Origin: Cenococcum geophilum
Lineage: Eukaryota
Direction of reading: 5' to 3'
Length of the DNA: 64,000 bases
Assembly (NCBI GenBank): GCA_050273025.1
Contig: CP158635.1
Coordinates: 17,174,001 to 17,238,000, forward strand
Under the pieces are notes generated by a model that saw only the letters and a list, made by a program, of their open reading frames with translations, ran no database searches and had not been told where the DNA came from. Positions 6,901 through 61,600 of the stretch are shown one piece after another; position 1 is the stretch's first letter, and every line of letters begins with the position of its first letter. A program made the position numbers and the translations under genes.

Positions 6901-7287
6901 CGACTAAGTAAGAAGTTAGACTACGTTAAACTAGGACCTTTTAAAATTATATAGAAGATTTTACCGGTCACGTTTAAGTTAAACCTACTAGCCAAAATAA
7001 AGATCTACCCTATACAGCATATTGTAATACTAGAGCCAGTATATAGGAATATTAAGCCACTAGTTTATAAAGCAGATACGTATAGAGGATAAGAAGAAGA
7101 CAAATAGTAAGTATTAAAGATTATTAATTATAAGGACATTAACAACAAAACATGGTACGAGATTAAGTGGATAGGCTATACTAAGACTACCTAGGAGCCA
7201 CTAAAGAATTTAAAGAACGCTATAGGAAAGGTATAGGAGTATTAAAAGAGATTAGGTTAGGTAGTATTAATAAAGAAGGATTACTAA
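922..7287 (+). pseudogene. gag(-extension)-pol of Gypsy A1
   Basis: ATG at 922. Gag motif RF.GER.KLKGFLTQ (~1135-1180). CCHC knuckle ~1918-1965. Protease ALIDS.. ~3988. RT YR.LN..T.KD.YPLP.I ~4665-4720 and degenerate YLDD ~4953. RNase H, integrase (W.VI.WDFI.KLP ~6200-6240, HP.TDG..ER.N ~6500-6540) and chromodomain (YE.KW.GY...TWEP..NL ~7155-7215). Many RIP stops; end coordinate approximate. Confidence 0.92.
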
Positions 7288-7874
7288 AGAATAAGTTACC
7301 TAAGGGGGACCTAAAAAGAGTAGTTACCGAACTACTTAGATCTATTTCCTTCTCTATTAAAGGAGAATCTATTCTTTTATTACCTAGTTCCTAAAGACCT
7401 TATTAAATAAGCTTCTATTCCTTTAAATAAACTTTCTTATAAATATATTCTAAACGCTAAAGACAAGTATAAGCTAGACGCTAAGCTTTAAGGATATATA
7501 CGGACTCTTTTAAGGTACGCTAAACCTTAAGCAGCGCAGAGGCTAGTTTACTATTAAGCTTCGTAATAGTAAATTAAATATAAAACCCTAAGATAAATTA
7601 ATTAGGGAACTAGACGACTATTAAGGGTAATAGGTCGCGTATACTTAGCATTAGACGTAGAATAAATATCACACGATAAACGTATATTGGCGCGAGTATA
7701 TTTAGAATAAGAGGAGGGTTAGTAACTAGAAGGACTCGCGATCGTAATATAACTTAACCCCTCTTTTATATAACGAGAGTAAGGGATTGCTATTACTTTA
7801 CCGAGTAATAGTATTAAGGAGATGGTATAAAGGCGACGCTTAACCTAAGAGAGAGAAGAAATTGCTTTAGGTAT
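7187..7874 (-). pseudogene. Antisense accessory gene of Gypsy A1: Zn2Cys6-like cluster plus coiled coil, one inferred intron
   Basis: Consensus across the five copies: MPKA...LGE.M..PCSRCAKEGL.(C)......PSSCS.CT.AN...SCD. After a ~55-bp intron-like segment: ...RLQRLE..R.KVHSKEWKLI..GL.EL. Ends approximate. Confidence 0.65.
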
Positions 7875-7982
7875 TATAAGCAATAATATTAACTAAATTA
7901 ATTAGACGGATATTATACCTCTAGTAAATAACCTAGAAATGCTAGGTATCTTTAAGGATAAAGATAAAGAGGAGGGAGATAG

Positions 7983-8408
7983 TGTTACGGACGCTTTAAG
8001 TATAATATTATAACTACTTAAAGAGGAGTTAGAAGAAGCTAGTTAGTTAATATAAGTATAGACTAGGATAGAACCTGTAGAACTATATAATAAGGAATAG
8101 TAAGCAAGTTATATAATGGTTAAACGTATTAGCTGCGTTAAATAAAAGGGACATTACGTTTAATATAGATAAGACATATATTATATATAAGAAGGATTTT
8201 ATAGAAGTACAGTTATATATTTAAGGACCCTTAGTCCCTACCTAGATAGTTCCTTCCTTGTAGTAATTCTTAGAATATAATTAGAGTTAATCTATTGGGC
8301 AACTACTCCACCAGTTGTTATTACGTTGTTGACTTTTATACTTGCATTTCCTACATACCTAGCCCAATAACGAGCCTATCGTAGTTCTTACTATAAGGTT
8401 CCGTTACA
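7983..8408 (+). repeat. 3' LTR of Gypsy A1
   Basis: tgttacggacgc...ccgttaca, followed by the TSD ttata. Confidence 0.96.
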
Positions 8409-15741: not shown

Positions 15742-16019
15742 CATCGGCAAAATATTGTCCCTTGTAAATGACCTCAGCTGCTAGAAGTTGGCGTCGTTAG
15801 CGGGCCATTAAGAGCATTAACCAACTTAACAAACCAGCCTATGTCGAGTTTATTTAACACGCAGCCTACGCGCAGCCTGCGCATAGCCTACGTAACCTAC
15901 GCAACCTACGCAACCTGCGCAACCTATATAACTTATAATTTTAGATAATAAAGGCTACTTTAAAGCCGTTTATAAAGCTATTAAGATAAATTATATATAC
16001 TTCTTTATATAATCTATTA

Positions 16020-16410
16020 TATCTACATCTGCTACCTATCTATATTGTCTACCTATCTATATTACCTACCTATCTATATTACTTACCTATCTATATTACC
16101 TACCTATCTATATTACCTACTTATCTACATCGCCTACCTATCTATATTATCTACCTGTCTATATTATCTACCTATCTATATTACCTACCTGTCTGTATTA
16201 CTTACCTATCTACATTACCTACCTATCTATATTGTCTACCTATTTACATTATCTATCTATCTACATCGCCTACCTATCTACATCGTCTACCGGTCTACAT
16301 TACCTACCTATCTATATTATCTACCTGTCTGCATCGCCTACCTATCTACATTGTCTACCTATTTATATTATCTACCTATCTATATTGCCTACCTATTTAT
16401 ATCTGCCTAT
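16020..16410. repeat. CTAC-based minisatellite (ctacctatctacatta, ~16-bp unit)
   Basis: Directly visible; also at 37230-37393, 43475-43735, 25020-25115, 44205-44295 and 46295-46470. Confidence 0.95.
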
Positions 16411-16635
16411 AGTGTCTAATTTAATTCGGGGGAGAGGTCGGCCTAATTAAAGGCTCTAATTAATTCAAATCGTTCTCTATAGCCGTTCGCTAGCTGTATA
16501 TTTAAACAGTAGTTATCTAGGGTGCCTCCCTAGGAGGCCTTAATTCGATTCGATTCGGTAATAAGCTCTAGATTAATTCAATTAATTAATTAAATTATTT
16601 GTGGTATTCGCTAGCTAGTTATTTAAACGGTCGTC

Positions 16636-16776: not shown

Positions 16777-19700
16777 TGTAACAGAACCTTGTAGTAGGAA
16801 CTACGATAGGTTCTGTTAATAGGCTAGGTGTATAGGAAATGCAAAGATAGTAGTTAACAATGTAATAATAACTGGTGGAGTGGTTGCCTAACAGATTAAC
16901 TCTAATTGTATTCTAAGAATTACTATAAGGAAGGAACTACCTAGGTAGGGACTAAGGGTCCTTAAATATACAACCATACTCCTAAGAAATCCTTCTTATA
17001 CGTAATGTATGTCTTATCTATATTAAACGTAACGTCCCTTATATTTATTATAGATAACACGTCCAACTATTATATAACTTACTTACTATTCCTTATTATA
17101 TAGTTCTACGGGTTCTATTCTGGTTTATACCTATATTAACTAACTAGCTTTTTCTAACTCTTCTTTAAGTAGTTATAATATTGTACTTAAAGCGTCCGTA
17201 ATACTATCTCCCTCCTCTTTATCTTTATTCTTAAAGATACCTAGTATCTCTAGGTTATTTATTAGAGGTATAATATCTATCTAATTAATTTGGTTAATAT
17301 TATTACTTATTATACCTAAAGCAATTTCTTCTCTCTCTTAGGTTAAGCGTCGCCTTTATACCGTTTCCTTGATACTATTACTAGGTAAAGTAATAGCAAT
17401 TCCTTACTCTTATTATATAAAAGAGGGGTTAAGTTACATTATAATTATAAGTTCCTTTAGTTACTAACCTTCCTCTTGTTTTAAATGCACTTACGCCAAT
17501 ATATATTTATTATGTGACATTTATTCTATATCCGATATTAAGTATACGCGTCCTATTACTCTTAATAGTTTTTAAGTTCCTTAAGTAATTTGTTATAGGG
17601 TTTTATATTTAATCTGCCGCTATAAAGCTTAATAATAAGCTGGCCTTTATACTGCTTAAGGTTTAGTATACCTTAGAAGAGTCCGCACGTGTCCTTAAAG
17701 CTTAGCGTCTAGCTTATACTTATCTTTAGCGTTTAGAATATATTCGTAAAAAAGTTCATTCTAAGGAGTGGAAGCTTATTTAATAAGGTCTTTAGGAGCT
17801 GGGTAATAAGAGAACTAACTCTCCTCCTATAGTGAGGGGAATAACTCTAAGTAGTTTAGCAGTCGCTTTTCCTGGGTCCCCCTTAGGTAACTCGTTCTTT
17901 AATAATCCTTCTTTATTAATATTGCCTAACCTATTTTCTTCCGATACTCCTATACCTTTCCTATAGCGTTCTTTAAGTTCTCTAGTGGCTTCTAGGTAGT
18001 CTTAGTATAGCCTATCTACTTAACCTTATACTATATTTTATTATCTATATCCTTATAACTAATAATCTTTAAAACTTACTATTTGTCTTCTTCTTAACCT
18101 CTATATATATCTGCCTTATAAACTAGTGACTTAATATTCCTATATGCTAGCTCTAGTATCGCGATATGCTATATAGGGTAGATCTTTATTTTAGCTAGTA
18201 GGTTTAACTTAAATATGACTGGTGAAATCCTTTATATAATTTTAAAAGGTCCTAGTCTAACGTGGTCCAACTTCTTGCTTAGTTATTAACTTTTAAAAAT
18301 TTTATACAGTAGCCATACTTTATCTCCCTCCTTAAGATCTGGTCCCTTAGATCTCTTAGCATTATAGTACTTTTTTATTCTTTGCTATACTGCCTTAGCT
18401 GTTTCCATAAGGTTTACATAAAGATTTATTAAAGTCTCTATTCTCTACTTAGCTTTACTACTCGTTTTCTTTGCTTAATATAGCGATAATAATGTTCTTA
18501 GCTCGTATTTATAATTCGCCTTAAATAGTAACATACCCATTTCTTCCTGTGGTGTTGTATTATATATAAACTGTATAACTAGTAATAGTAATACCTAATT
18601 ATTCTATGCGTGATTAATATAATGCCTTAGATACTGCTCTAGTGTCTAGTTTAATCTTTCCGTTTAATCGTCTATTTGCGGATAATATGCGGTGGAAGTT
18701 ACTACTTAAACTCCTTATTCCGCCAAGAATACCTCCTAGAATACTGTTACGAATCTTAAATCTCTATCTAATATAATTTTACTTAGTGCTCTATATTTTG
18801 CAAATACTTCTTTAATATAGATTCTAGCGATATCTTCCGCTAAGATTTCTTCTGTATAGGCTATAAAGTATCCCTACTTTGTAAGCTTGTCTACTATTAC
18901 TAAGATTGCGTTATAATCTTATTCGGTAATAGGATCTCTTAACTTTAGTAACTTAATAATAAAGTCCTATAATATAACCTCCTATAGTCTCTCTGGTGTT
19001 TTAATAGGTTATAGCCCTCTATACGGCTTATGCCTTATTAGTTTATTCCTTTAGCAATCTAAATACTCTTTAGTAACTCTTCTGGCTATCCTCTAGATTC
19101 CGTTAATAATATACTCCTCCTAAAGTCTTAACACTAAGCCTATAGCTCCATTATGTCCTTAAGTTAGTCCCTTATAGAAGTCCTCTATAAACTGCTTTAC
19201 TATGCTTCTTAGAATGTACTTCGCTTCTTAGTTTTCGTATATATCTAACTATAGATCTTCTAGCTGCGCTTCTAGAATTCTTTATGCCTAAAAGCTTTCT
19301 AGTGTCTTATAGACCTTTTCTAACTTATCCTTTTAAGTTACTGCGATTTTTAGATAATTATACCTAATTAGTCTATCTGTATCTTTTTGCAGTAAAGCCC
19401 CTAATAGCTTATCGTTATTTTATAGTTTAGCCTTTTAACTTAACGCGTTAGCTTGCGTGTTGTCTATACCCTTAGTATGCTAAATCTTAAAATAGTATTT
19501 TATAAGCATCTCTACCTATCTAACCTGCCTTTAATTAAGTTCCTTTATCGTTAGAAATCCTATTAGGTTTTTATAATCCGTCTTAACTATAAATAGTTTC
19601 TCTATACCTTGTAAAAATGCTCTTTATTTCTTTAGTACTATAACTATACCTAATAACTCCTTATTATAGATGTTATAGTTTAACTCTAGTAGTGTTATCT

Positions 19701-24813: not shown

Positions 24814-25584
24814 GACGGTTATCTAGTTTTAGCGACGTTCGTCTAGTTCTGGCGACGGTTATCTAGTTCTAGCAACGGTCGTCTAGTTCTGGCGACGGTT
24901 ATCTAGTTCTGGCGACGGTCGTCTAGTTTTGGCGACGGTTGTGGTTTTAGCGACGGTTATCTAGTTCTGGTGACGGTTGTCTAGTTCTAACGACGGTCGT
25001 CTAGTTTTGGTAACGGTTCTTTTCTACCTGCTTACCTGCCTGCCTACCTACTTGTTTACCTACCTACTTATTTATTTACCTACCTACCTGCCTACCTACC
25101 TGCTTATCTACCTACGTTAATGTCTAATTTAATTTAGGGGAGGAGTTAGCCTAATTAAAGGCTCTTATTAATTTAAATCGTTCTCTATAGCCGTTCGCTA
25201 GCTATATATTTAAATAGTAGTTATCTAGGGTGCCTTCCTAGGAAGTCTTAATTTAATTTAGTAATAGGCCGATATTAAAGCTCTAGTTTAATTTAATTAA
25301 TTAATTAATTAAATTATTTATAGTATTTGCTAGCTGGTTATTTAAACGGTTATTATTTAGTTTTAGCAATAGTTATCTAGTTCTAGCAATAGTTATCTAG
25401 TTTTGGCGACAGTTATCTAGTTCTAGTAATAGTTATTTAGTTTTAGTAACGGTTGTCTAGTTCTAGTAATAGTCCTCTACTAGCTGCCGTTCCAGTACCT
25501 CCTAAGGTAAGGAGGATATAAAGAAGGGTAAAAAATAAGGTGGCTATAAAGGGGGTAACTTAGTAGAGGTATGTGCGGGGACCT

Positions 25585-32700: not shown

Positions 32701-34694
32701 TTAAATAGAGATCTAAGATTTATAGTAGCATTTTAGAAAGTGTTTTTAGTAAAGTAAGGAGTTTAAGCAGTAACTTCTACCGCATATTATCCGCAGACAG
32801 ATAGTTAAATGGAAAGGTTAAATTAGACGCTAGAGCAGTACCTAAGGCATTATATTAATTATATATAGAATAACTGGGTATTACTATTACTAGTTATATA
32901 GTTTACATATAATGTAACACCTTAAAAAGGAATAGGTATATTACTATTTAAGGTAAATTACAGATATAAGCTAAGAATATTGTTATTACTATAGTAAATA
33001 AAGAAAACAAGTAATATAGCTAAAGAAAGAATAAAGACATTAATAAATCTTTATGTAGACCTTATAGAATTAGTAAAGAAAGTATAAAAAAGAATAAAAA
33101 AGTACTATAATACTAAGAGATCTAAGGGACTAGATCTTAAGGAGGGAGATAAAGTGTAGCTACTATATAAAAATTTTAAGAGTTAACGACTAAGTAAGAA
33201 GTTAGACTATATTAAACTAAGACCTTTTAAAATTATATAGAAGATTTTACCGGTTATATTTAAGTTAAACCTACTAGCTAAAATAAAGATCTACCTTATA
33301 TAGTATATTATAATGCTAGAGCTAGTATATAGAAATGTTAAGCCACTAGTTTATAAAGCAGACATATATAGAGGATAAGAAGAAGATAAATAGCAAGTAT
33401 TAAAGATTATTAATTATAAGGATATTAACAATAAAATATAGTATGAGGTTAAGTAAATAGGCTACACTAAGACTACCTAGGAGCTACTAGAGAATTTAAA
33501 AAACGCTATAGGAAAGGTATAGGAGTATTAGAAGAGATTAGGTTAGGTAGTATTAATAAAGAAGGATTACTAAAGAATAAGTTACCTAAGGGGGACCTAA
33601 GAAGAGCAGTTACTAAACTACTTAGATTTATTTATTTCTCTATTAGAGGAGAATCCGTTCTTTTATTACCTAGTTTCTAAAGACCTTATTAAATAAGCTT
33701 TTACTCCTTTAAATAAACTTTCTTATAGACACGTTTTAAATACTAAAGACGAGTATAAGCTAGATGCTAAGCTTTAAGGACATGTGCGGACTCTTCTAAG
33801 GCACGCTAAACCTTAAATAGCGTAGAGGCCAGTTTACCATTAAGCTTTGCAGTAGTAGATTAAATATAAGACCCTAAGATAAATTAATTAGGGAACTAGA
33901 CGACTATTAAGAGTAATAGGTTACGTATATTTAGCATTAGATGTAGAATAAACGTTACATAATAAATGTATATTGGCGCGAGTGCATTTAAAATAAGAGG
34001 AGGGTTAGTAACTAGAAGGACTCGCAATTATAATATAATTTAACCCCTCTTTCGCACAATAAGAGTAAGGGATTGCTATTACTTTACTAAGTAATAGTAT
34101 TAAGGAGACGGTATAAAGGCGACGCTTAATCTAAGAGAGAGAAGAAATTGCTTTAGGTATTATAAGTAATAATATTAACTAAATTAATTAAACGGATATT
34201 ATACCTTTAGTAAATAACCTAGAGATACTAGGTATCTTTAAGGACGAAGATAAAGAGAAGGGAGATAGTATTACGGACGCTTTAAGTATAATATTATAAC
34301 TACTTAGAGAGGAGTTAGAAGAAGCTAGTTAGTTAATATAGGTATAGACTAGGATAAAACCCGTAAAACCATATAATAAGGAATAGTAAGCGAGTTATAT
34401 AATGGTTAAACGTATTAGCTATATTAAATAAAAGGGACGTTATGTTTAATATAGATAAGACGTATATTATATACAAGAAGGATTTTATAGGAGTATGGTT
34501 ATATATTTAAGGACCCTTAGTCCCTACCTAGATAGTTCCTTCCTTATAGTAATTCTTAAAATATAATTAGAGTTAATCTATTAGGCAACCACTCCACCAG
34601 TTATTATTACGTTGTTAACTTTTATACTTGCATTTCCTATATACCTAGCCCAATAACGAGCCTATTGTAGTTCTTGCTATAAGGTTCCGTTACA
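26739..34694 (+). mobile_element. Ty3/Gypsy family A copy 3 (complete), inserted in the helicase gene
   Basis: 426-bp LTRs at 26739-27164 and 34269-34694. TSD AAGGT at 26734-26738 and 34695-34699. gag ATG at 27209. Colinear with A1. Confidence 0.97.
33473..34160 (-). pseudogene. Antisense Zn2Cys6-like/coiled-coil gene of Gypsy A3
   Basis: Homologous to 7187-7874; retains Cys2 (tgt gcg aaa) and Cys5. Confidence 0.62.
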
Positions 34695-36952: not shown

Positions 36953-39900
36953 TATCGGCAAAATATTGTCCCTTATAAATGACCTTAGCTGCTAAAAGTT
37001 GGCGTCGTTGGTGGGCTATTAAGGGCATTAACCAACTTAATAAACTAGCCTATGTTAAGTTCATTTAACATATAGCCTACGCGTAGCCTATATATAGCCT
37101 ATATAACCTACATAACCTACGCAACCTGCGTAACCTATATAACTTATAATTTTAGATAATAAAGGCTACTTTAAAGCCGTTTATAAAGCTATTAAGATAA
37201 ATTATATATACTTCTTTATATAATCTATTATATTTACATCTACTACCTATCTACATCGTCTACCTATCTATATTACCTACCTATCTACATTACCTACCTG
37301 TCTACATTACCTACCTATTTATATTACCTACCTATTTACATTACCTACCTATCTACATTATCTACCTATCTATATTATCTACCTATCTACATTTGTTGGG
37401 AATAAAGGCAAATGGTCACCATATAAGGCATATTGCCGTCACGTGTGGTAAGTTGCCGTTACGTGCGGCAAGTTGCTATCACGTGCCGCCGCGGCACTAG
37501 CGTAGTAAGGAACCTTAAGTTCCTTACCCCTTTCTTAAAGAAGAAAACAGAACAGAACAATTATTATACTATCTACGAACCGTAGCTACGTAATATCCCC
37601 CTTATATAACCAACACTAATTAGTGGTTAACTTTACTATTATACTATAGAGCAGCTAGGTATTCCACTAAGAAGAGATAAGCCACTATACCAGTGCTACT
37701 CGTGCTAAAGAAAGCTATCTTTTAAGGTTAGAACTGGTCCTAAACCTTAAATAGAACTCTTCTACGAATCTAAGGATTTAAAGGCTAAAACTGGTCCTAA
37801 GCCTTTCTAAGATTATAGATTCTTGCGTCCATTATATAGAATAACACGCTTTATAAGTCTTCGCGATTTAAGGCTAGAACTAGTCCTAAGCCCTATAATT
37901 GTAAATATACGTTATAAACGCGTACTAAACGATAAATATATATTACGAACGCGTACTAAACGACAATCCCTACACTAATAACACTTCCCTCCCTCTAAAA
38001 ACATGGCTATACCTACTTTAAACGACTAGGAAGACTTCTTACCACTAGGGGTAGCTTTATACGCGAAACTTATTAATAAAAATTAGGACGAATTTACCTT
38101 TAATATAATAACTTATACTGTAAAATAAGTTAATAGCTTTCTCCTATACCATATTATATTCTACTAAAGTAAATACTATACTAATATACAGCTATGGGAA
38201 TATTTTAGGGAGGATTTTATAGGATAGACCGCTAATACCTAGGCACTTAGCAATATTAATATTATTTAGGATTTTTAAGACTTCCTCCATAGGAATAGGG
38301 TATATATTACTAAGAACGGTAACCTAATTACTAGTAATATTTAGGCCGTTATTACTAGTATAAAAAAACTAGTATAGACGGAAGCTAAGATTATATATTA
38401 ACTATAGAAACCTAGAACTAACCTATATTCTTTAAAAGGCAACTTTAATTTAAAACGAAACCCCTAAAACGCTACTCTTCTACCTAAAGGTACTCTCCTA
38501 CCTAGAGGTACTTATTCTCTACCTCCGCCGCCTTTAGCTCCTTTACTCTAGCTAACTAGTAACCCTTTACTATAAGAAGTTATAAATCTAATAAAGGTAT
38601 ATTTAGATAAAAAGAAGAAGTTTAAAGAAGAATTATATGATATACTTAGAGTAAAACTATAGGTCTTCTATAACTGTTGCAATAAGGTTAGAATTTAATG
38701 CCACTAGTACCACCACGCTTTCTCCATTATGTTAAAGGGATAGGCAGTAATATTATATTATAACCATATTATGGGTAAAAACTATAGCTTTAATATAATG
38801 TTTTAGCTCACTAAAGCCCACTTTAAGACTAATAAGAATCGCTAACTTTATATATCTAAATAGCGAGAGACTATATTCTAGAGAGTTATTGCTTCTAACC
38901 TAACAAAGACTTATTTAGAGTGCCTTTAACTACTTTTTAATAAACTCTAAAAAATTTAATACGGACTTATCGAAACTTACTAAAATAAGAACAGCCTAAG
39001 GGACTAGGTTATTTTAGCATGCTATAGCGTTCCTAAGTATAACTTGGTGCTATATAAACCTATAGATATATTTAAAGGAGTATATACTAAGCTACGCTCT
39101 GCTATAGGTACTATAATACAAATATAAGAATCTTAACAGCTCTATACTAAAAGCCCTACCTAACTAAGCATTCCCAACTAATATGATTATAACTAGACTA
39201 ATTGAATATATAGCGGCCGTAGTAGGGAATACGGTAAAGGGTACAATTAACGTTAACTATAAGGTAATTATGGAGGTCCTTATGGAGGTTTATTTTAAAA
39301 TAATTGCTAAAAGAAGTGCTATGTTTGTAAGAAGCCAAATTACTAGTTAACTAGATACTCCCTTAATAAGCGAAAAGAGGCATATAATAAGTTCCGTTAG
39401 AGTATAAAAAATGTTAAAAATTATAAGGTTACTATAGCCTACTTTTAAAGCTTCCTAGTTTAATATAAAGGCGTAGAAAACCTTAAGGGTAAGGTTAATA
39501 AGACTAAATAGCTCCTTATAGATATGGAAATTGAGGACTACTTACCTAACTAATACTTTACTAAGTACGGTAAGGTAAATGGTATACAAACTATTGCTAT
39601 TCTTAATAACTAATCTACGCTCTATTTTATTACGAAGTTAGATATCTTTAATAAGCTAAAGGAGAGCTCCGCGTTTTCCTTTAATAATAGATACTCGGTA
39701 AATGTCTTCTATAGTATTATGCCGGATACTAGAGCCGTAGGAGTATCTATAGTAGGAGAACCTTAAGTTCGAGCCCTTTAGCAGCTTAATAGCTCTATTT
39801 AGATTAACTATTTAACGGCAGGCTAATACACAATTCGTTTTAGCAAAGGTACTACAATCTCTTTTGGCATAATTAGGGTTTAAACCCCCTTAGGGTATAT

Positions 39901-42900: not shown

Positions 42901-45123
42901 TTCTTAGTTATATAAGGTCTTAAGATATCTAGGAACTTTAACCGGCGGTTAAAGTTATTTAATTAGTTAGATTCTATAGACCCTAACTTAAACCAGCCAA
43001 TTAGGATTTTCCATCCCTAGGATAGAAAATCGCTATTAGCTCGCTTACCGCTAGCGCCTTAGCGGCCCTACTAATAAGATACCTACCCATAACTTATAAG
43101 TAAGAAAGCACTACGTGCTAAGAGGCAAATTTTAGGACAGTGAGACTTATATTACAATAGCAATAGTAAGTAAGGAGGATTAATTTTTGTTCCGCTAGTT
43201 AAGCGGTATATATATATAGATGGCAACTATAAAAGAAGAGTTGCTAGTATTAGGAATAAAGGCAAATAGTCACTATATAAGGCATATTGCCGTCATATAT
43301 AGCAAGTTGCCGTTACGTGCGGTAAGTTACTATCACGTGCCGCCGCGGCACTAGCGTGGTGAGGAACCTTAAGTTCCTCACCCCTTTCTTAAAGAAGAAA
43401 ACAGAATAGAACAATTATCATACTATCTATGAACCGTAGCTATGTGATATCCCCCTTATATAACCAATAACATTACCTACTTATCTATATTACCTACCTA
43501 TCTACATTACCTACCTATCTATATCGTCTACCTATCTACATTATTTACCTATCTGTATCGCCTACCTATCTATATCGTCTACTAGTCTGCATTATCTACC
43601 TATCTATATTACCTACCTATCTATATTACCTACCTATCTATATCGCCTACCTATCTACATCGCCTACCTATCTATATCGTCTACTTATCTACATTATCTA
43701 CCTGTCTATATCGCCTACCTATTTACATCTGCCTATAGTGTCTAATTTAATTCGGGGGAGAGGTCGGCCCGATTAAAGGCTCTAATTAATTTGAATCGTT
43801 CTCCATAGCCGTTCGCTGGCTATATATTCGAACAGTAGTCATCTAAGGTGCCTCCCTAGGAGGCCTTAATTCGATTTAATTCGGTAATAGGCTCTAGATT
43901 AATTCAATTAATCGATTAAATCATTCGTGGTGTTCGCTGGCTGGTTGTTCAAACGGTCGTCATCTAGTTCTAGTAACGGTCGTCTACTAGTTCTGGCGAC
44001 GGTCGTCTAGTTCTAGCGACGGTCATCTGGTTCTGGCGACGGTCATCTAGTTCTAGCGACGTTCGTCTAGTTCTGGCGACGGTCGTAGTTCTAGCGACGG
44101 TCGTCTAGTTCTGGCAACGGTCGTGGTTCTAGCGACGGTTATCTAGTTCTAGCGACGGTCGTCTAGTTCTGGCAACGGTCGTCTAGTTCTGGCAACGGTC
44201 CTCTCCTACCTACCTACCTGCCTACCTACCTACTTGTCTACCTACCTACTTATTTATCTACCTACCTACCTACCTACCTGCCTGCCTGCCTGCGTTAGTG
44301 TCTAGTTTAATTTAGGGGAGGAGTTGGCTTAATTAAAGGCTTTTATTAATTTAAATTGTTCTCTATAGCCGTTTACTGGCTATATATTTAAATAGTAGTT
44401 ATCTAGGGTACCTCCCTAGGAAGTTTTAATTTAATTTAGTAATGGGCCAATATTAAAGCTCTAGTTTAATTTAATTAATTAATTAATTAAATTATTCGTG
44501 GTATTTACTAGCTGGTTATTTAAATAGTTATTATTTAGTTTTAGCGACGGTTATCTAGTCCTAGCGATAGTTATCTAGTTCTAGTAACGGTTATCTAGTT
44601 TTAGCGACGGTTATCTAGTTCTAGCGACGGTTATCTAGTTCTAGTAATAGTTTTCTATTAGCTACCGTTCTAGTGCCTTCTAAGGTAGGAAGAATATAAG
44701 GAAAGGTAAAAAATAAGGTGGCTATAAAGGGGGTAACTTAGTAGAGGTATGTGCGGGGACCTAATATAGAGCTTTATATAGAGCCTCTATATATAGAGCT
44801 TCGCGTAAAGCCTTATATAGAGCCTTTATACGTAGAGCTTTATATAAAGCTTTATATAAAGCTTTATATAGAGCCTTTTAAGTATATAACTTAAAAATAA
44901 TATATTATATTACCTTAATTATATATTAAGGAATATATAAGTTAGTTAACTGCGTATTATTTAACTTTTAAATATATTAAGTTGGTTAATTATAGATTAA
45001 TTATAGGTTAATTGCGTATTATTTAACTTTTAAATGTATTAAGTTGGTCAACTGTATATTAATTACGCGAAACGCGCTTAATAATGTTAACTTAAAACCT
45101 AGCCTACGAATATTTTCCCGATA
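36953..45123. mobile_element. Non-autonomous CATC-terminus TIR element, copy 2 (~2.1 kb native, split by Copia)
   Basis: Left end tatcggcaaaatatt; right end aatattttcccgata. 2-bp TSD AA/AA. Colinear with copy 1. Confidence 0.87.
37394..43469 (+). mobile_element. Ty1/Copia LTR retrotransposon (complete, RIP-inactivated)
   Basis: 222-bp LTRs at 37394-37615 and 43248-43469. TSD ACATT on both sides. ORF from ATG ~38003: CYVC.K..CW...H knuckle ~39315, protease IMPDT.A...ST.G ~39715, integrase LH..FGH.S/C..CQ ~40115-40235, RT DI.QAY ~41668 and Q.DD ~41935, RNase H FVD.SF.NN.D.SSQLG ~42370. Order PR-IN-RT-RH. Confidence 0.95.
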
Positions 45124-45427: not shown

Positions 45428-47429
45428 AGGTAAAAATCACGCCAAAATCAGCTATAGGCAAAACTCCTTAGTACGATACCGGGTATATAACGATACCATT
45501 AGTATTACAATCTACACGCCCTAATTAAGCCTTTTTTGGTGTAATTAACGATAATCTAACTTTTACAATATTGTTAGGTGCCTCTACCAAAATCGGTATA
45601 ACCAGTTTTAATTCGCTAGATTTAGCCTTACCTTACCGCAAGTTTAGCCGTTAACTTTTATTAAAATCTGTTAAATTAAACCTTAGATCTTATTCTCTAT
45701 ACTTAATTCTACCTTATTAATTATAGGTAGGTCTCGAAATTCTAAGAGGCTATATTATTATGGATTCTCTAACTTTAAACGCTAGAAAATACGCGCCTAT
45801 ATTAGGAAATTTTTTTTAGGGCTCGTTGTTACGGTTTGCGGCAAATTGCCGCAAACCGTACGGCTGTGGTAGGTAGATATAGTTAATAGCAATTTGCGCA
45901 AAACGTATATTTTATAATAAAATCGCAGCACCTAATAGCAAATTGCGGCAAAATGCTACCCCTATAAATAAATTATAGTAAAATGCTACCCTATAAATAA
46001 ATAGCGCGCAAACTATATAAATTATAAAAACTGTATAAATTGTATAAACTATACGAATTATATAAACCGTACAAATTGTATAAACCGTATAAATTATATA
46101 AACTATATAAATTGTAAAAACTGTATAAATTATAACTATAAATTATAATTATATTATATAATAACCAAATTATTACATATTCCCATAGATTTCTATAATA
46201 TACTTTTAAATATATTTATATTATAACTATATAAAATATAGAGCTATCTACTTTAGGCGTTAAGGGGGAAGCCTCTTGCAGAGGCTCTAAATTATCTACC
46301 TACCTACCTACCTGCCTGCCTGCCTACCTACCTACCTACCTACCTACCTACCTACCTGCCTACCTACCTACCTATCTACCTACCTACCTATTTGCCTACC
46401 TACCTATCTGTCTGTCCGTCCGTCTATACCTACCCATCTATACCTACCTATCTATGCCTACCTATCTATATCACCTTAATTTAATCGATTAATTAAATTA
46501 TTTATTATATTTGCTGGCTAGTTATTTAAACGGTTGTTATATGGCTCTAGTAACAGTTATATAGCGATAATAACGGTCGTCTAGCTCTAACGGTTATCTA
46601 GCTTTAGTAACGGTTATCTGGCTTTAGTAACGGTCATCTAGCTCTAGTAATGGTCGTCTAGCTCTAACGACAATTATCTAGCTCTGGCGACGGTTATCTA
46701 GCTCTGGCGACGGTTGTTTAGCTTTAACGACAGTTATCTAGCTCTAACAGTCGTCTAGCTCTAGTAACGGTTATCTGGCTCCGGCGACGGTCGTCTACCT
46801 TTAGCAACGGTTATCTAGCTCCGGTAACAATTATCTAGCTTTAGCGACGGTTATCTAGCTCTAGTAATGGTTGTCTAGCTCTAACAACAATCGTCTAGCT
46901 CTGATGACGGTTGTTTAGCTCTAATAATAGTTGTCTAGCTCTGACGGTTATCTAGCTCTAGTAATGGTTATCTAGCTCTGGCAACGGTCGTCTAGCTCTG
47001 GCGATAGTTATCTGGCTCTAGCAACGGTTGTCTAGCTCTAACAATAGTTGTTTAGCTCTAATAACGGTTGTCTAGCTCTAATAACGGTTATTTAGCTCTA
47101 ATAGTTGTTTAGCTTTAGCGACGGTTATTTAGCTCTAGCGACAGTTATTTAGCTCTAATAACGGTTATCTAGCTCTAATAGTTGTCTAGCTCTAATAACA
47201 GTTATCTAGCTCTAACAGTTATCTAGCTCTAGCAACAGTTGTCTAGCTCCGGCAATAGTTATCTACTAGCTGTTATTCTAGTGTCTTCCTAGGTAGGGAG
47301 GATATAAAAAAGGGTAAAAAATAAGGTGGCTACTTAGGTGTATATAGGGGGTATATTTAGCAGAGGCATATATAGAGGCTATTAGGAATATAGCAGGGAC
47401 CTAATAGTAGTATATCGCGCGTATATATA

Positions 47430-48324
47430 AAGGCTTTATATAGAGCTTTATATAGAGCCTCTGTATATAGAGCTTCGCGTAGAGCCTTGTATAGAGCTTC
47501 GCGTAAAGCCTTATACAGAGCCTTTATATATAGAGCTTTATATAGAGCTTCGTAGAGCTTTATATAGAGCTTTATACAGAGCTTTGTGTAGAGCTTTATA
47601 TAGAGCCTTATATAAAGCTTTGTATAGAGCTTTGTACAGAGCCTTGTATAAAGCCTCTATATATAGAGCTTTATATAGAGCCTCATATAGAGCCTTATAC
47701 AAAGCTTTATATAGAGCTTTGTATAGAGCTTTATGTAGAGCTTTATATAGAGCTTTATATAGAGCTTTATATAGAGCCTTATATAGAGCCTCTATACGCA
47801 GAGCTTTGTGTAGAGCCTTGTGTAGAGCCTTGTGCAAAGCTTTATGTAAAGCTTTATATAGAGCTTCGTGTAAAGCTTCGTGTAGAGCTTTATATAGAGC
47901 CTTTATACGCAAAGCTTCGTGCAGAGCTTCGTGTAGAGCTTTATGTAGAGCCTCTATACGTAGAGCTTTGTGTAGAGCATTGTGTAAAGCTTTATATAGA
48001 GCTTCGTGTAGAGATTTATACAGAGCTTCGTGCGAGCCTCTGTACGCAGAGCTTTGTATAGAGCCTTATGTAGAGCCTTATATAAAGCTTTGTATAGAGC
48101 TTTGTATAGAGCTTTATGTAGAGCTTCGTATAGAGCTTCGTGCGGAGCTTTGTGCACGAATTTGTGCAGAACTTTGTATAGAGCCTCGTGCAGAGCCTCT
48201 GTACGCAGAGCTTTATATAGAGCCTTATATAGAGCCTCGTGCAAAGCTTCGTGTAGAGCTTCGCGTAAAACTTTATATAGAGCTTTATATAGAGCTTCGT
48301 GTAGAGCTTCGTGCAGAGCCTCTG
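47430..48324. repeat. Expanded 12-bp minisatellite (agagct[t/c][t/c][a/g]t[a/g]t)
   Basis: Directly visible; produces the spurious ALYR/ALYK ORFs in the track. Confidence 0.96.
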
Positions 48325-48590
48325 TATTAGGAAAAAATATTTTAGGTACATTGTTGCAAGCGAAAATCGGGGTCTGCAAAACCTGCGTAAGTTGCAATTT
48401 TGGTAGTTTGCGGCGATTTGTAGCAATTTGCTATGAACACATAGATAGGGTAGGCGCGTGTATAGGTAGCCTATGTGTTTGTAGCAAATTGCTGCAAATC
48501 GCCGCAAATTGCCAAAATTGCGACTTACGCAGGTTTTGCAGACCCCGATTTTCGTTTGCAACAACGAGCCCAAAAAAAAATTTCCTGATG
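48325..48590. repeat. ~266-bp fold-back (arms ~120 bp) forming the right end of CATC copy 3
   Basis: gcgaaaatcggggtctgcaaaacctgcgtaagt...aacacatag pairs with ctatgtgttt...acttacgcaggttttgcagaccccgattttcg. Confidence 0.92.
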
Positions 48591-57719: not shown

Positions 57720-58660
57720 TGTAACGGAGCCTTGTAGTAGGAACTACGGTAGACTCGTTAATGGGCTAGGTATATAGGTATTATAAGTAAGTCAACAATG
57801 TAATAATAACTGGTGGAGTGGTTGCCTAATAGATTAACTCTAATTATATTCTAAGAATTACTATAAGGAAGGAACTATCTAGGTAGGGACTAAGGGTCCT
57901 TAAATACACAACCGTACTCTTATAAATCCTTCTTATACGTAATATACGTGTTATATATAAGGTACGTAAGTTCCTCTTATTCCTCTTATTTAATATATAG
58001 CATATTATATAACCTTAGTTACTATTCCTTATTATATAGTTCTATGGGTTCTATCCTAGACTATACCTATATTAACTAACTAGCTTCCTCTAACTCTTCT
58101 CTAAGTAGTTATAGTATTATACTTAAAGCGTCCGTAACACTATCTCCCTTCTCTCTATCTTTGTCCTTAAAGATACCTAATATCTCTAAGTTATTTACTA
58201 GAGGTGTAATATCCGTCTAATTAATTTAGTTAATATTATTGCTTATAATGCCTAAAGCCTCTTCTTCTTTATACGCGCAATAATGTACCCGCACTATTAC
58301 TATAATATTATTACTTAGTAAAATAATACTATCTCCGTGTTCTTATTGTTTAAAAGAAAGGTTAGTTTACGTTATATTAGTAAGTCCTTTATCTTAATAG
58401 CCCTCTTTCTATTTAGAGTATACTAAAGTAAACATTTAATTGTCTTATAATGTTCGCTCTACTTCTAACGCTAAGTATACGCGTCCTATAACTCTTAATA
58501 GTTTCTAAGTTCCCTAAGTAATTTATTATAGGGGTTTATATTTAATCTGCCGCTATAAAGCTTAATAGTAACCTAGCGTAGGCCCTTATAGAGCTTAAGC
58601 GTTCTTAGAATGCGGAATAGAAGACCCTAAACGCCCGCATTACGGCGTCTACCTATCTAC
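57720..58660 (-). mobile_element. Ty3/Gypsy family A copy 4 (3' LTR 57720-58139 plus antisense gene start), interrupted by A5
   Basis: LTR homologous to family A with a variant middle segment. ATG at 58248 reads MPKASSS...PCSYCLKE. Confidence 0.9.
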
Positions 58661-61600
58661 TGTAACGGAACCTGGTAGTAAGAACTACGGTAGGTTTGTT
58701 ATTGGGCTAGGTGTATAGGAAATGCAAGTATAAAAGTCAACAACGTAATAACAACTGGTGGAGTAGTTGCCCAACAGATTAACTTTAATTGTATTCTAAG
58801 AATCACTACAAAGAAGGAACTATCTAGGTAGGGACTGAGGGTCCTTAAATACATAACCGTACTCCTAAGAAAGTTGTTGCTTTATCTGCTCTATCTGCTC
58901 TATTCGCTCTACAATAGATCTCACAGATTATACAGATTATATAGATCACATCACGTGACTTTGCCTACTATTCCTCGTCATATGGTTTTACGGGTTCTAT
59001 CCTAGACTGTGCTTATATTAACTAACTAGCTTCTTCTAACTCTTCTCTAAGTAGTCATAATATTGTACTTAAAGCGTCCGTAACACTATCTCCCTCCTTT
59101 TTATCTTCGTCCTTAAAGATACCTAGCATCTTTAGGTTGTTTACTAGAGGTATAATATCCGTCTAATTAATTTGGTTAACATTATTACTTATAATGCCTA
59201 AAGCACCTTCTTCTTCCTCTACAGCCCGTTGGTCTCGTACTATTGCTATAATATTATCTCTTGGCGAGATAATGCCTTCTCTATGTTCTCGTTATATGAA
59301 AGAGGGGCTAGTTTACGTTATATTGGTAAGTCCTTTGTCCCAGTAACCTTCCTTTTATTTAAAGTGCACTAAAGCAAATATTCAGTTATCCTATAACATT
59401 TACTCTATCTCTAATATTAAATATACGCAACCTATTACTCTTAATAGTCGTCTGGTTCCCTAATTAATTTATCTTAGGGTCTTATATTTAATCTAAGGCA
59501 GAAAAACTTAAGGGTAATCTTACCGTAGCGCTAGCGGAAGCCTATTGTCAATCCAAAGAATCTACTTATGCCCTTAAGGCTCAGTAGTCTACCTTTATAA
59601 AAGTTTAGCGTCTTTAACGCGTTTATAAGAAGGTTCACTCTAAGGAGTGGAAACTTATAAAATAAGGTCTATAGGAACTAGGTAATAAAAGAACGGATTC
59701 TCTTCCAATAGAGAAGGAAATAGATCTAAGTAGTTCGGCAACTACTCTTCTTAGGTCCCCCTTAGGTAACTCATTCTTTAGCGATCCTTTTTTATTAATA
59801 CTACCTAATCTAATCTCTTCTAATACTCCTATACCTTTCCTATAGCGTTCTTTAAATTCTCTAGTAGCTCCTAGGTAGTTTTAGTATAGCCTATCCACTT
59901 AACCTTATACTATATTTTGTCGTCAATGTCCTTATAATTAACGATCTTTAATACTTACCATTCGTCTTCTTCTTATCCTTTATACGTGTCTGCTTTATAA
60001 ACTAGTGGCTTAACATTCCTATATACTAGCTCTAGCATTACAATATACTGTATAGGGTAGATCTTTATTTTAGCTGGTAGGTTTAACTTAAACGTAACTA
60101 GTAAAATTCTCTACGTAATTTTAAAAGGTCCTAGTTTAACATAGTCTAACTTCTTACTTAGTCGTCAACTCTTAAAATTTTTATATAGTAGCTATACTTT
60201 ATCTCCCTCCTTAAGATCTAGTCCCTTAGATCTCTTAGTATTATAGTACTTTTTTATTTTCTTTTATACTTTCTTTACTAATTCCATAAGGTCTATATAA
60301 AGATTTATTAATATCTTTATTCTCTCTTTAGCTATACTACTCGTTTTCTTTACTTACTATAGTAATAACAATATTTTCGGCTTATATCCGTAATTTGCCT
60401 TAAATAGTAATGTGCCTATTCCTTCTTAAGGTATTACATTATATATAAACTATATAACTGGTAATAGTAATACCTAATTATTCTGTGCATAATTAATATA
60501 ATACCTTAGGTACTGCTCTAGTGTCTAATTTAATCTTTCCGTTTAACCGTCTGTCTATAAATAATATACGGTAGAAGTTGCTGCTTAAACTTTTTACTCC
60601 GCTAAGAACACTTCCTAGAATACTGCTATAAATCTTAAATCTCTATTTAATATAATCTTACTTAGTACTCTATATCTTACAAATACTTCTTTAATATAAA
60701 TCCTAGCGACATCTTCTGCTAAGATTTCTTCTATATATGCTATAAAGTATTCCTACTTTATAAGCTTGTCTATTATTACTAAGATCGCGTTATAATCTTA
60801 TCCGGTAATAGGATCTCTTAACTTTAGTAACTTAATAATAAAGTCCTATAATATAACCTCCTATAGTCTCTCTGGTATTTTAATAGGTTATAGCCCTCCA
60901 TATAGCTTATGCCTTATTAGTTTATTCCTTTAGCAATTTAGATATTCCTTTATAACCCTTCTAGCTATCCTCTAGATTCCATTAATAATGTACTCCTTTT
61001 AGAGTCTCAACACTAAGCCCGTAGCTCCATTATATCCTTAGGTTAGTCTTTTATAGAAGTCCTTTATAAACTGCTCTGCTATGCTTCTTAGGATATACTT
61101 TACTTCTTAATTTTCGTATATATCCGTCTATAGATCTTTTAGCTATACTTCTAAAATTCTTTATGCCTAAAAGCTTTCTAATATCTTATAGACTTTCTCT
61201 AGTTCGTTATTTTCTTAAGTTACTACAATTTTTAGATAATTATATCTAATTAACCCATCTATATCTTTTCGCAATAAAGCCCCTAATGGCTTTTCCTCAT
61301 TTTATAGTTTAGCTTTACAGCTTAGAGCATTTACCCGCGTATTATCTGTACCTTTAGTATACTAAATCTTAAAATAGTATTCCGTAAGCATCTCTACCCA
61401 TCTAACCTGTTTTTAGTTAAGTTCCTTTATTATTAGGAATCCTATTAGGTTCTTATAATCTATCTTAACTATAAATAGTTTCTCTATGCCTTATAAGAAT
61501 GCTCTCTATTTCTTTAATGCTATAACTATACCTAATAACTCCTTATTATAGATATTATAGTTTAACTCTAGTAGTATTATCTTCCGACTATAGTATACCA

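Follow-up and report, generated by a model that had tools for sequence, protein, structure and literature searches.

What is encoded on the strand opposite to pol, next to the 3' long terminal repeat (LTR), in a repeated Gypsy element of Cenococcum geophilum? The question is raised by a stretch of 64,000 nucleotides (nt) of contig CP158635.1 (assembly GCA_050273025.1, positions 17,174,001–17,238,000 of the forward strand; the whole stretch is called the window, and positions are counted from its first letter). It contains four full or near-full copies of the element (c1 and c3 on the plus strand, c2 and c5 on the minus strand) and one fragment (c4), c1–c3 making up subfamily A and c5 subfamily B. 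An earlier inspection of the letters, the sequence-only reading, had placed here an intron-containing antisense gene for a Zn2Cys6-like coiled-coil protein. There is little doubt that the antisense gene is real, and the five stretches are probably copies, inactivated by repeat-induced point mutation (RIP), of a genuine accessory gene of a Ty3/Gypsy chromovirus family, antisense to gag-pol. The earlier observation is confirmed with corrected borders and its interpretation is partly supported.

The feature is present in all five copies, on the strand opposite to pol and reading toward it. Its start positions (7874 in c1, 34160 in c3, 17312 in c2, 59194 in c5 and 58248 in c4) share one alignment column, and the start codon of c1 is placed 109 nt from the 3' LTR, in agreement with the distance of about 110 bp and the orientation into pol proposed beforehand. 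A profile of the five translations (X at stops), compared with a database of 1.84 billion protein representatives, matched 170 proteins at E ≤ 1e-3; the number falls to 74 at E ≤ 1e-10 and to one at E ≤ 1e-30, and all 170 align to the antisense translation. These relatives come from metagenome or ENA records. In the best 150 matches just seven of 91 columns contain more than 80% Cys plus Tyr, namely the six positions proposed for Cys plus the TGT codon in which the splice donor lies. Cys and Tyr alternate in the relatives at exactly these six positions, which are all Cys or Tyr in 102 of the 111 matches spanning them, and two of the 111 (P0088 and P0128) carry six Cys. The third position, Tyr in every window copy, is Cys in 33 of the best 150 matches and Tyr in 112. 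The reverse comparison gave the same picture: a profile made from unmutated relatives only (A5) matches the window at the five places already noted, with 80–112 bits each, always antisense to pol and with the two exons described below in different frames. Elsewhere in the 64-kb window A5 finds nothing significant, two further matches (E 0.27–0.59) having negative scores.

The genomic surroundings of the relatives are those of the window gene. A metagenome scan with a single protein, P0061, yielded 601 pattern matches. Relatives are encoded by 185 of them, and the 80 best of the 185 (L001–L080), from three data sets, were analysed as loci. A convergent pol C-terminus lies at most 1.5 kb downstream in 78 of 84 matches in the 80 loci, with a median of 398 nt between the start of the Cys region and the aligned pol end, and four of the six matches without this neighbour lie no more than 500 nt from the end of their contig. 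All 80 loci are heavily RIP-mutated, with a G+C content of 0.26–0.36 in the 21 that were measured. Among viral contigs, 21 pattern matches were found and none encodes a relative of the antisense protein.

The selective constraint on the protein was evaluated with transversions, because RIP does not make them. Between subfamily A and c5 there are 55 fixed transversions, 52 of them in 7440–7880, three in 7187–7440 and none in the flanks. In 7590–7880 the antisense frame with the cysteines shows 11 synonymous changes out of 26, where 1000 random placements lead one to expect 5.4 (p 0.012; BLOSUM p 0.002), the values for the other five frames being p 0.32–1.0 and those of the sense frames among them 0.46–0.91. 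In 7440–7590 it is a different antisense frame that carries the signal (11 of 26 changes synonymous, p 0.009). One sense frame scores equally there (11 of 26, p 0.002), and because it shares third positions with the antisense frame this segment alone does not tell the strand. Transversion diversity over 22 sequences is 0.058, 0.013 and 0.103 at codon positions 1, 2 and 3 of exon 1 and 0.094, 0.064 and 0.199 in exon 2, and the intron presents no excess at position 3 (0.058, 0.059 and 0.027). The order of codon positions is thus 3 > 1 > 2 in both exons and not in the intron, and the protein was under purifying selection in the past.

The neighbouring pol end and the spacer next to the LTR differ between the subfamilies by 3 and 0 transversions, respectively, versus 52 in the accessory gene. 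The intron region unites c2 with c4 on the one side and c1 and c3 with c5 on the other. Such a mosaic of the gene and its neighbours suggests recombination between element lineages, as by template switching.

The gene model, with one intron, is as follows for the five copies:

7643..7874, minus strand: exon 1 of c1; 77 codons plus 1 nt; start ATA (from ATG); N-terminal helix region and six-Cys motif.
7588..7642, minus strand: intron of c1; 55 nt, phase 1; donor now ATACGC, TAAC-like branch region, acceptor YAG.
7223..7587, minus strand: exon 2 of c1; coiled-coil region, KVR.KV.SKEWKL motif and C-terminal tail ending ...TPIPFL.
7220..7222, minus strand: stop codon TAG of c1; shared as a stop by all 21 aligned copies, and seven unmutated relatives end at the same residue.
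7875..7982, no strand assigned: spacer of c1 between start codon and 3' LTR; 108 nt; contains the polypurine tract.
33506..34160, minus strand: c3; exon 1 34160–33929, intron 33928–33874, exon 2 33873–33509, stop 33508–33506; start ATA.
17312..17966, plus strand: c2; exon 1 17312–17543, intron 17544–17598, exon 2 17599–17963, stop 17964–17966; start ATA.
59194..59845, plus strand: c5 (subfamily B); exon 1 59194–59422, intron 59423–59477, exon 2 59478–59842, stop 59843–59845; ATG kept.
58248..58665, plus strand: c4, truncated; exon 1 58248–58476, intron 58477–58531, first part of exon 2 only; the last profile match ends at 58665.

Once the intron is removed the coding length is divisible by three in each complete copy (199 codons plus stop in c1, c2 and c3; 198 plus stop in c5). 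The 108-nt spacer, with a purine/pyrimidine conservation of 0.90–0.98, is presumed to be the 5' untranslated region and/or promoter region of the antisense gene. In c4 the sequence turns into an LTR end beyond the partial exon 2; the start previously given for this copy (58248) is retained, and its end (58660) is replaced by a cut inside exon 2.

Every copy is damaged, and the damage consists of transitions only; the window copies are therefore RIP-killed pseudogenes, and the gene is a dead relic in this window. Internal stops number 10 in c1, 9 in c2, 11 in c3 and 7 in c5. The splice donor is AT in all five copies (GT if the RIP-type G-to-A change is reversed), and the start codon is ATG in c4 and c5 and ATA in c1–c3; over 87 aligned relatives and copies it is ATG in 17, ATA in 69 and AAT in one. 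None of the window copies can work, because of the 7–11 in-frame stops in the full copies and the destroyed donor. The spacing in the window is C-x2-C-x6-(Y)-x13-C-x2-C-x8-C, with Cys1 kept in c4 and c5 (2/5), Cys2 in c3 and c4 (2/5), Cys4 in c2 (1/5), Cys5 in c2, c3 and c5 (3/5) and Cys6 in c1, c2 and c3 (3/5), Cys3 being Tyr in 5/5. All the residues that replace Cys at these positions are Tyr, that is, TGY changed to TAY, as expected for RIP. The proposal that the copies together retain the ATG and five of the six cysteines, with the third always TAY, is borne out, and the losses of Cys3, start codon and donor are all explained by RIP-type changes.

The interruption of the frame has the properties of an intron. 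In all 18 full-length metagenome loci among 21 inspected the first part of the protein is in frame 0 and the second in frame +1, with a conserved segment between them; in the less mutated loci this segment begins T/GTRCGY (slashes mark the exon borders), contains TAAC near its 3' end and finishes TTATAG/GG. Over 86 sequences (81 locus matches plus the five window copies) the donor is GT in 25, AT in 60 and AC in one and the acceptor AG in 83 and AA in three. The segment of about 55 bp with a RIP-altered donor, as described from the letters, holds at 55 nt. Its length is 55 nt in 69 sequences, 61 in four, 127 in two, 130 in nine, 54 in one and 131 in one. It equals 1 mod 3 in 84 of the 86, which fits a phase-1 intron and would not be shown by a translated insert. 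A subfamily with an intron of 127–131 nt (e.g. L004 and L068) accounts for 12 of the 86 sequences and keeps the frame rule in 11 of the 12.

Six contiguous proteins (P0151, P0169, P0171, P0174, P0175 and P0177) read ...AE-W-SRV... across the junction, where W is the T+GG codon predicted from excising exactly 55 nt with GT..AG ends. In P0178, which comes from a 120-kb contig, an unmutated intron, equally long, is read through, and together with the six junction forms this indicates that genomic intron-bearing copies and contiguous intron-less forms both exist. The latter would represent spliced mRNA from environmental transcript assemblies, intron-less DNA copies being the alternative. Other borders considered for the intron (GTATAC, 57 nt; GTCCTA, 49 nt; GC..GG, 52 nt) were dropped, since the W junction of P0151 fixes T/GT...AG/GG at 55 nt. 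Open frame, GT–AG intron and conserved cysteines, whose absence from unmutated copies had been named as evidence against the gene, are all seen in the relatives.

The 3' end required a correction. An end at TAATAA (7403–7408), beside a pol stop, was rejected: it is a stop in just 9–13 of 21 copies, and the relatives continue ...KLVEQGL.EL... past it. The next stop common to all 21 aligned copies is the TAG at 7222–7220, and the seven unmutated proteins ending at that residue are P0169, P0175, P0177, P0178, P0179, P0180 and P0186. Of the extent given by the sequence-only reading (7187..7874), the start therefore stands and the end moves to this TAG. The last ~30–180 nt of exon 2 of c1 overlie the 3' end of pol (chromodomain end and tail). 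Transversion diversity by coordinate phase shows the hand-over from sense to antisense coding: in 7100–7219 it is 0.052 at sense third positions versus 0.002 and 0.008 at the others, in 7223–7300 it is 0.000 at sense third (antisense second) positions versus 0.017–0.018, and in 7411–7489 it reaches 0.171 at antisense third positions versus 0.053–0.063. No sense-frame stop common to all 21 copies was found between 7192 and 7477. In 7223–7390 sense stops are frequent, in up to 17 of 21 copies per site, versus just two stop occurrences in the antisense frame. The tail of the antisense protein is thus shown to be encoded over the end of the pol chromodomain, and the overlap of the second exon with the chromodomain end, as first proposed, extends to 7223.

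The full protein, of about 199 residues, is seen whole in unmutated relatives such as P0151 (152 residues) and P0169 (239 residues, N-terminus open). It starts MPPK..., followed by a short helix and ...EIMPS. The Cys motif of the relatives reads C-SR-C-AKEGLV-C-(13)-C-AE-C-(8)-C, giving in P0151 and P0169 the spacing C-x2-C-x6-C-x13-C-x2-C-x8-C ahead of a helix of ~100 residues. DVRSVSDAE-W-SRVQSAAAKL... comes after the motif and leads into this long helical stretch, which is followed by the conserved basic motif KVREKVRSKEWKLVEQGL, an acidic Ser/Thr-rich piece and a C-terminal end ...SFFGDPSLSMLPDLLSSDTPVPFL, with the tail pattern SSDTP[IV]PF[LPS]. AlphaFold2, run for P0169 with 50 sequences and for P0151 with 32 sequences rich in intact Cys, predicts a single long helix with a predicted local distance difference test (pLDDT) value above 95 at residues 98–197 of P0169 and 77–151 of P0151. 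In four relatives the heptad pattern of small hydrophobic residues along this helix is reached by 1, 17, 17 and 64 of 2000 shuffles, which agrees with the heptad-rich character attributed to the second exon. Binding of zinc together with dimerisation appears about evenly poised; sequence-specific DNA binding is rather doubtful.

On this basis the following mode of action can be envisaged. Transcription of the gene would begin at a promoter within the 3' LTR or adjoining it, and its intron would be spliced from the antisense transcript only and never be lost from the element; it would survive because the reverse-transcribed genomic RNA is the opposite strand. The statement that antisense orientation is the only way for an intron to persist in a retroelement was too strong, since retroviruses keep sense-strand introns by incomplete splicing. 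The six cysteines may bind zinc and the helix may form a parallel dimer through its coiled coil, and the dimer could act in the nucleus on the LTR or expression of the element itself, or on integration, in a mode likened to a minimal Gal4-type DNA-binding module or to HBZ of human T-cell leukemia virus type 1 (HTLV-1). It is tentatively proposed that, in a large unnamed ascomycete Gypsy lineage, a spliced antisense mRNA that begins in the 3' LTR gives rise to an element-encoded dimer with sequence-specific DNA binding, which would switch the LTR or nearby host genes on or off; the protein would then consist of a divergent zinc-cluster module of minimal size joined to a coiled coil of 100 residues.

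Several results weigh against this account of the gene. The Cys region has a pLDDT of 42–61 in both AlphaFold2 models. In Pfam the best match to Zn_clus (PF00172) is 13.6 bits (P0151 and P0098) with a cutoff of 21, passed by no relative, and DUF3716 (PF12511) is matched in P0170 alone (15.4 bits, E 0.018, cutoff 22, positions 3–59 of 59). A profile search against the complete set of PDB sequences gave no significant hit, the best one (E 0.089) being a Mediator coiled coil. Just three metagenome data sets supplied the 80 loci, and the number of fungi behind them may be small. The contiguous proteins could be intron-less DNA rather than mRNA, and the contiguous P0061 has another junction (...AE-CT-FHVRS...) that the canonical removal of 55 nt does not explain. 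Finally, the spliced antisense reads that had been anticipated were not seen in four RNA runs mapped to the window, which gave no joint at 7588/7642 and near-zero cover of 7410–7870. In the raw-read run 64 reads gave partial fits, mostly with less than 90% likeness, the first mates lying on the plus strand over 7155–7358 and on the minus strand over the LTR, a layout that would suit opposite directions of transcription if the library were stranded.

The protein could possibly be a true fungal Zn2Cys6 (Gal4-type) member, with a binuclear zinc cluster, a coiled-coil dimer and CGG-type half-sites, for instance in the LTR. The conserved spacing of the six cysteines speaks for it, as does the order of cluster, linker and coiled coil, which is that of Gal4-type DNA-binding domains. 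Weak Zn_clus matches at E ≤ 10 are present in 5 of 32 and 3 of 21 relatives (DUF3716 in 1 of 32 and 1 of 21). They are confined to the second half of the profile, from position 16 or 18 to 36, aligned onto the first Cys triad, and all of them stay below the Pfam cutoff; none of 12 antisense translations of the window (X at stops) matches Pfam. The nearest neighbours in the ESM Atlas are three Ascomycota protein clusters with representatives of 192–214 residues, one of them auto-named 'Zn(2)-C6 fungal-type domain-containing protein' (with 212 of 256 features in common and a score of 0.92), which is a lead only, and the Cys region alone retrieves unnamed clusters at scores up to 0.83. The usual Zn2Cys6 spacing is C-x2-C-x6-C-x5-12-C-x2-C-x6-8-C, and the middle spacer of 13 residues between Cys3 and Cys4 is one above this range; like the Gly at a usually basic position, it may lie outside the family pattern. 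The lack of a confident AlphaFold fold for the Cys region points the same way. With 13.6 bits versus 21, over half of the model, the family assignment made by the sequence-only reading is not upheld, and membership in PF00172 is not confirmed.

A tentative place must also be given to a zinc-binding cofactor of retrotransposition, which would assist particle assembly, nuclear import or the choice of integration site through contacts with Gag, integrase or the chromodomain. Such a function would suit a gene that stands beside pol in nearly all related elements (78/84) and whose tail is co-encoded with the chromodomain end, and a review (PMC7264820, in the excerpts available) proposes accessory roles of this kind for plant antisense open reading frames (ORFs) at this place. 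The Pfam and PDB sequence searches revealed no similarity to a known cofactor.

It is most unlikely that the protein acts against genome defence, be it RIP, RNA silencing or heterochromatin. Nothing beyond its being encoded by an element speaks for this, and the five window copies and all 80 loci are heavily RIP-mutated; therefore the protein did not protect those copies. Very improbable, too, is a role of the antisense RNA itself, through double-stranded RNA, small RNAs or transcriptional interference, with the frame incidental or kept by cis sequences of the 3' end. Antisense transcripts of retroelements can regulate through double-stranded RNA (PMC7264820, as excerpted), and spacer and intron are well conserved as DNA, but the codon-position pattern and the synonymous excess denote selection on protein, the six Cys columns are conserved, and the intron obeys the frame rule in 84 of 86 sequences. 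A sense-strand origin of the coding signal, whether in an extension of pol or in a third ORF of env type, is refuted for practical purposes, since the equal score of one sense frame in 7440–7590 is opposed by the lack of any scoring sense frame in 7590–7880, by the profile of relatives, which matches the antisense strand of the window only, by the alignment of all 170 relatives to the antisense translation, and by the sense stops in 7223–7390.

The carrier lies in an AT-rich setting, the G+C content being 0.27–0.40 throughout the nested LTR retrotransposons that make up the window. C-to-T and G-to-A changes are abundant, a load that is the signature of fungal RIP. The element has LTRs of 426 nt, with LTR pairs found in the window; those of c1 are:

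452–877: 5' LTR of c1, 426 nt.
7983..8408, plus strand: 3' LTR of c1; the TGTTAC start at T7983 was read directly, and the end is inferred from the 426-nt 5' LTR.

Its gag-pol is a single frame of 2381 codons free of frameshifts, with Pfam matches above cutoff to RVT_1 (E 2.5e-15), RT_RNaseH (1.9e-16) and RT_RNaseH_2 (3.2e-16) and a match just below it to the Tf2-1 integrase SH3 domain (28.6 bits, cutoff 30); the remaining two sense frames have no Pfam match. The Pfam search of the gag-pol frame returned no chromodomain. A chromodomain-like pol end can be seen by eye in the translation (...WYEIKWIGY...TWEP..NL.NA...; pattern W.EIKWIGY). With LTRs, reverse transcriptase, RNase H, integrase and a C-terminal chromodomain, the carrier is a Ty3/Gypsy chromovirus.

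The 1.5-kb stretch that contains the gene is fitted by ~36,600 contigs of a DNA run from the likely source organism. The summed depth falls 20- to 100-fold over the exons (7410–7560 and 7665–7870) relative to pol, the intron region and the LTR; therefore most genomic copies diverge by more than 20% in the exons or are devoid of them. Arrays of a 17-nt tandem unit (at least 20 copies each) are placed at 15959–16513, 37180–37460 and 43397–43839, apparently within another repeat family, and other short-unit arrays (20-nt and 12-nt units), some of them at two places, at 46524–47195, 47488–48345, 24884–25123 and 44066–44305.

Among known systems, antisense extra genes of LTR retrotransposons have a record of ~25 years in plants, and one fungal element joined them in 2011, as related in the excerpts of PMC7264820. 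By position and strand the window gene is an antisense additional ORF (class aORF-3R, brtn type); most copies have it (5/5 in the window; 185 metagenome relatives), and it is conserved as a protein. Its closest counterpart in layout is brtn, the antisense gene of the Boty Gypsy element of the grey mould, described by Zhao et al. in 2011 (Virology 417:248, as cited in excerpts of PMC8365987, PMC7264820, PMC4227169 and PMC5987419). Both belong to fungal chromodomain-bearing Gypsy elements and lie, as an extra antisense gene, between pol and the 3' LTR in most copies, a likeness of layout as given in the citing papers. No protein named BRTN is among the 276 proteins fetched. In the portions at hand, PMC8365987 puts brtn in the BcGypsy1 subfamily and reports it absent from the current B05.10 annotation, PMC4227169 mentions 'brtn-106', and PMC5987419 lists a Monilinia transcript similar to Pol and BRTN. 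Genome annotation misses such genes, as illustrated by brtn in B05.10 and by the fetched relatives, which are unnamed or called 'hypothetical protein'.

The review (PMC7264820), in the same excerpts, draws brtn beside the plant cases Grande (gene23, maize), RIRE2 (rice), Retand (Silene) and PvRetro13 (Phaseolus), and assigns to none of these antisense genes a function or a clear similarity to other proteins. The plant genes share with the window gene the position, the orientation and their maintenance in most copies, and some of their products are nuclear. They differ in that the hosts are plants, the lineages are not chromoviruses, no Cys cluster is described in those excerpts, and no sequence similarity was reported there or found here. 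In the open-access library searched no description of this protein or of a retrotransposon-encoded zinc-cluster protein was found, and among the matches listed for antisense additional ORFs in fungal chromoviruses there are only brtn and the plant cases.

With the Gal4-type Zn2Cys6 proteins the window protein shares two C-x2-C-x6-8-C halves, a linker and a heptad helix. It remains below the Pfam threshold, however, and its middle spacer is longer (13), its helix has ~100 residues, and with 199 residues in all it is devoid of regulatory or activation domains. HBZ of HTLV-1 is an antisense basic leucine zipper factor expressed from the 3' LTR, with a spliced form. The shared layout comprises a minus-strand, intron-bearing gene adjoining the 3' LTR and a small protein with a coiled-coil dimerisation helix. 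HBZ belongs to a human retrovirus, in contrast, and joins a basic region to its leucine zipper but lacks a Cys cluster; it is not homologous to the window protein, and transcription from the LTR, known for HBZ, is only inferred for the window gene. An HTLV-1 antisense promoter in the 3' LTR is also mentioned in the excerpts of PMC7264820.

The present case provides an exact gene model, in which the single intron, its phase-1 junction and the stop are all placed, together with a conserved six-Cys motif joined to a long dimer-type helix and a coding overlap with the chromodomain. If the protein did prove to be a DNA-binding dimer, it would be a fungal counterpart of the retroviral HBZ/Tax-type regulators, and it might connect the passenger genes of retrotransposons, in evolution, with the very large family of zinc-cluster factors encoded by their fungal hosts. 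The unmutated relatives (P0151, P0169 and others) make the function of retrotransposon passenger genes directly testable.

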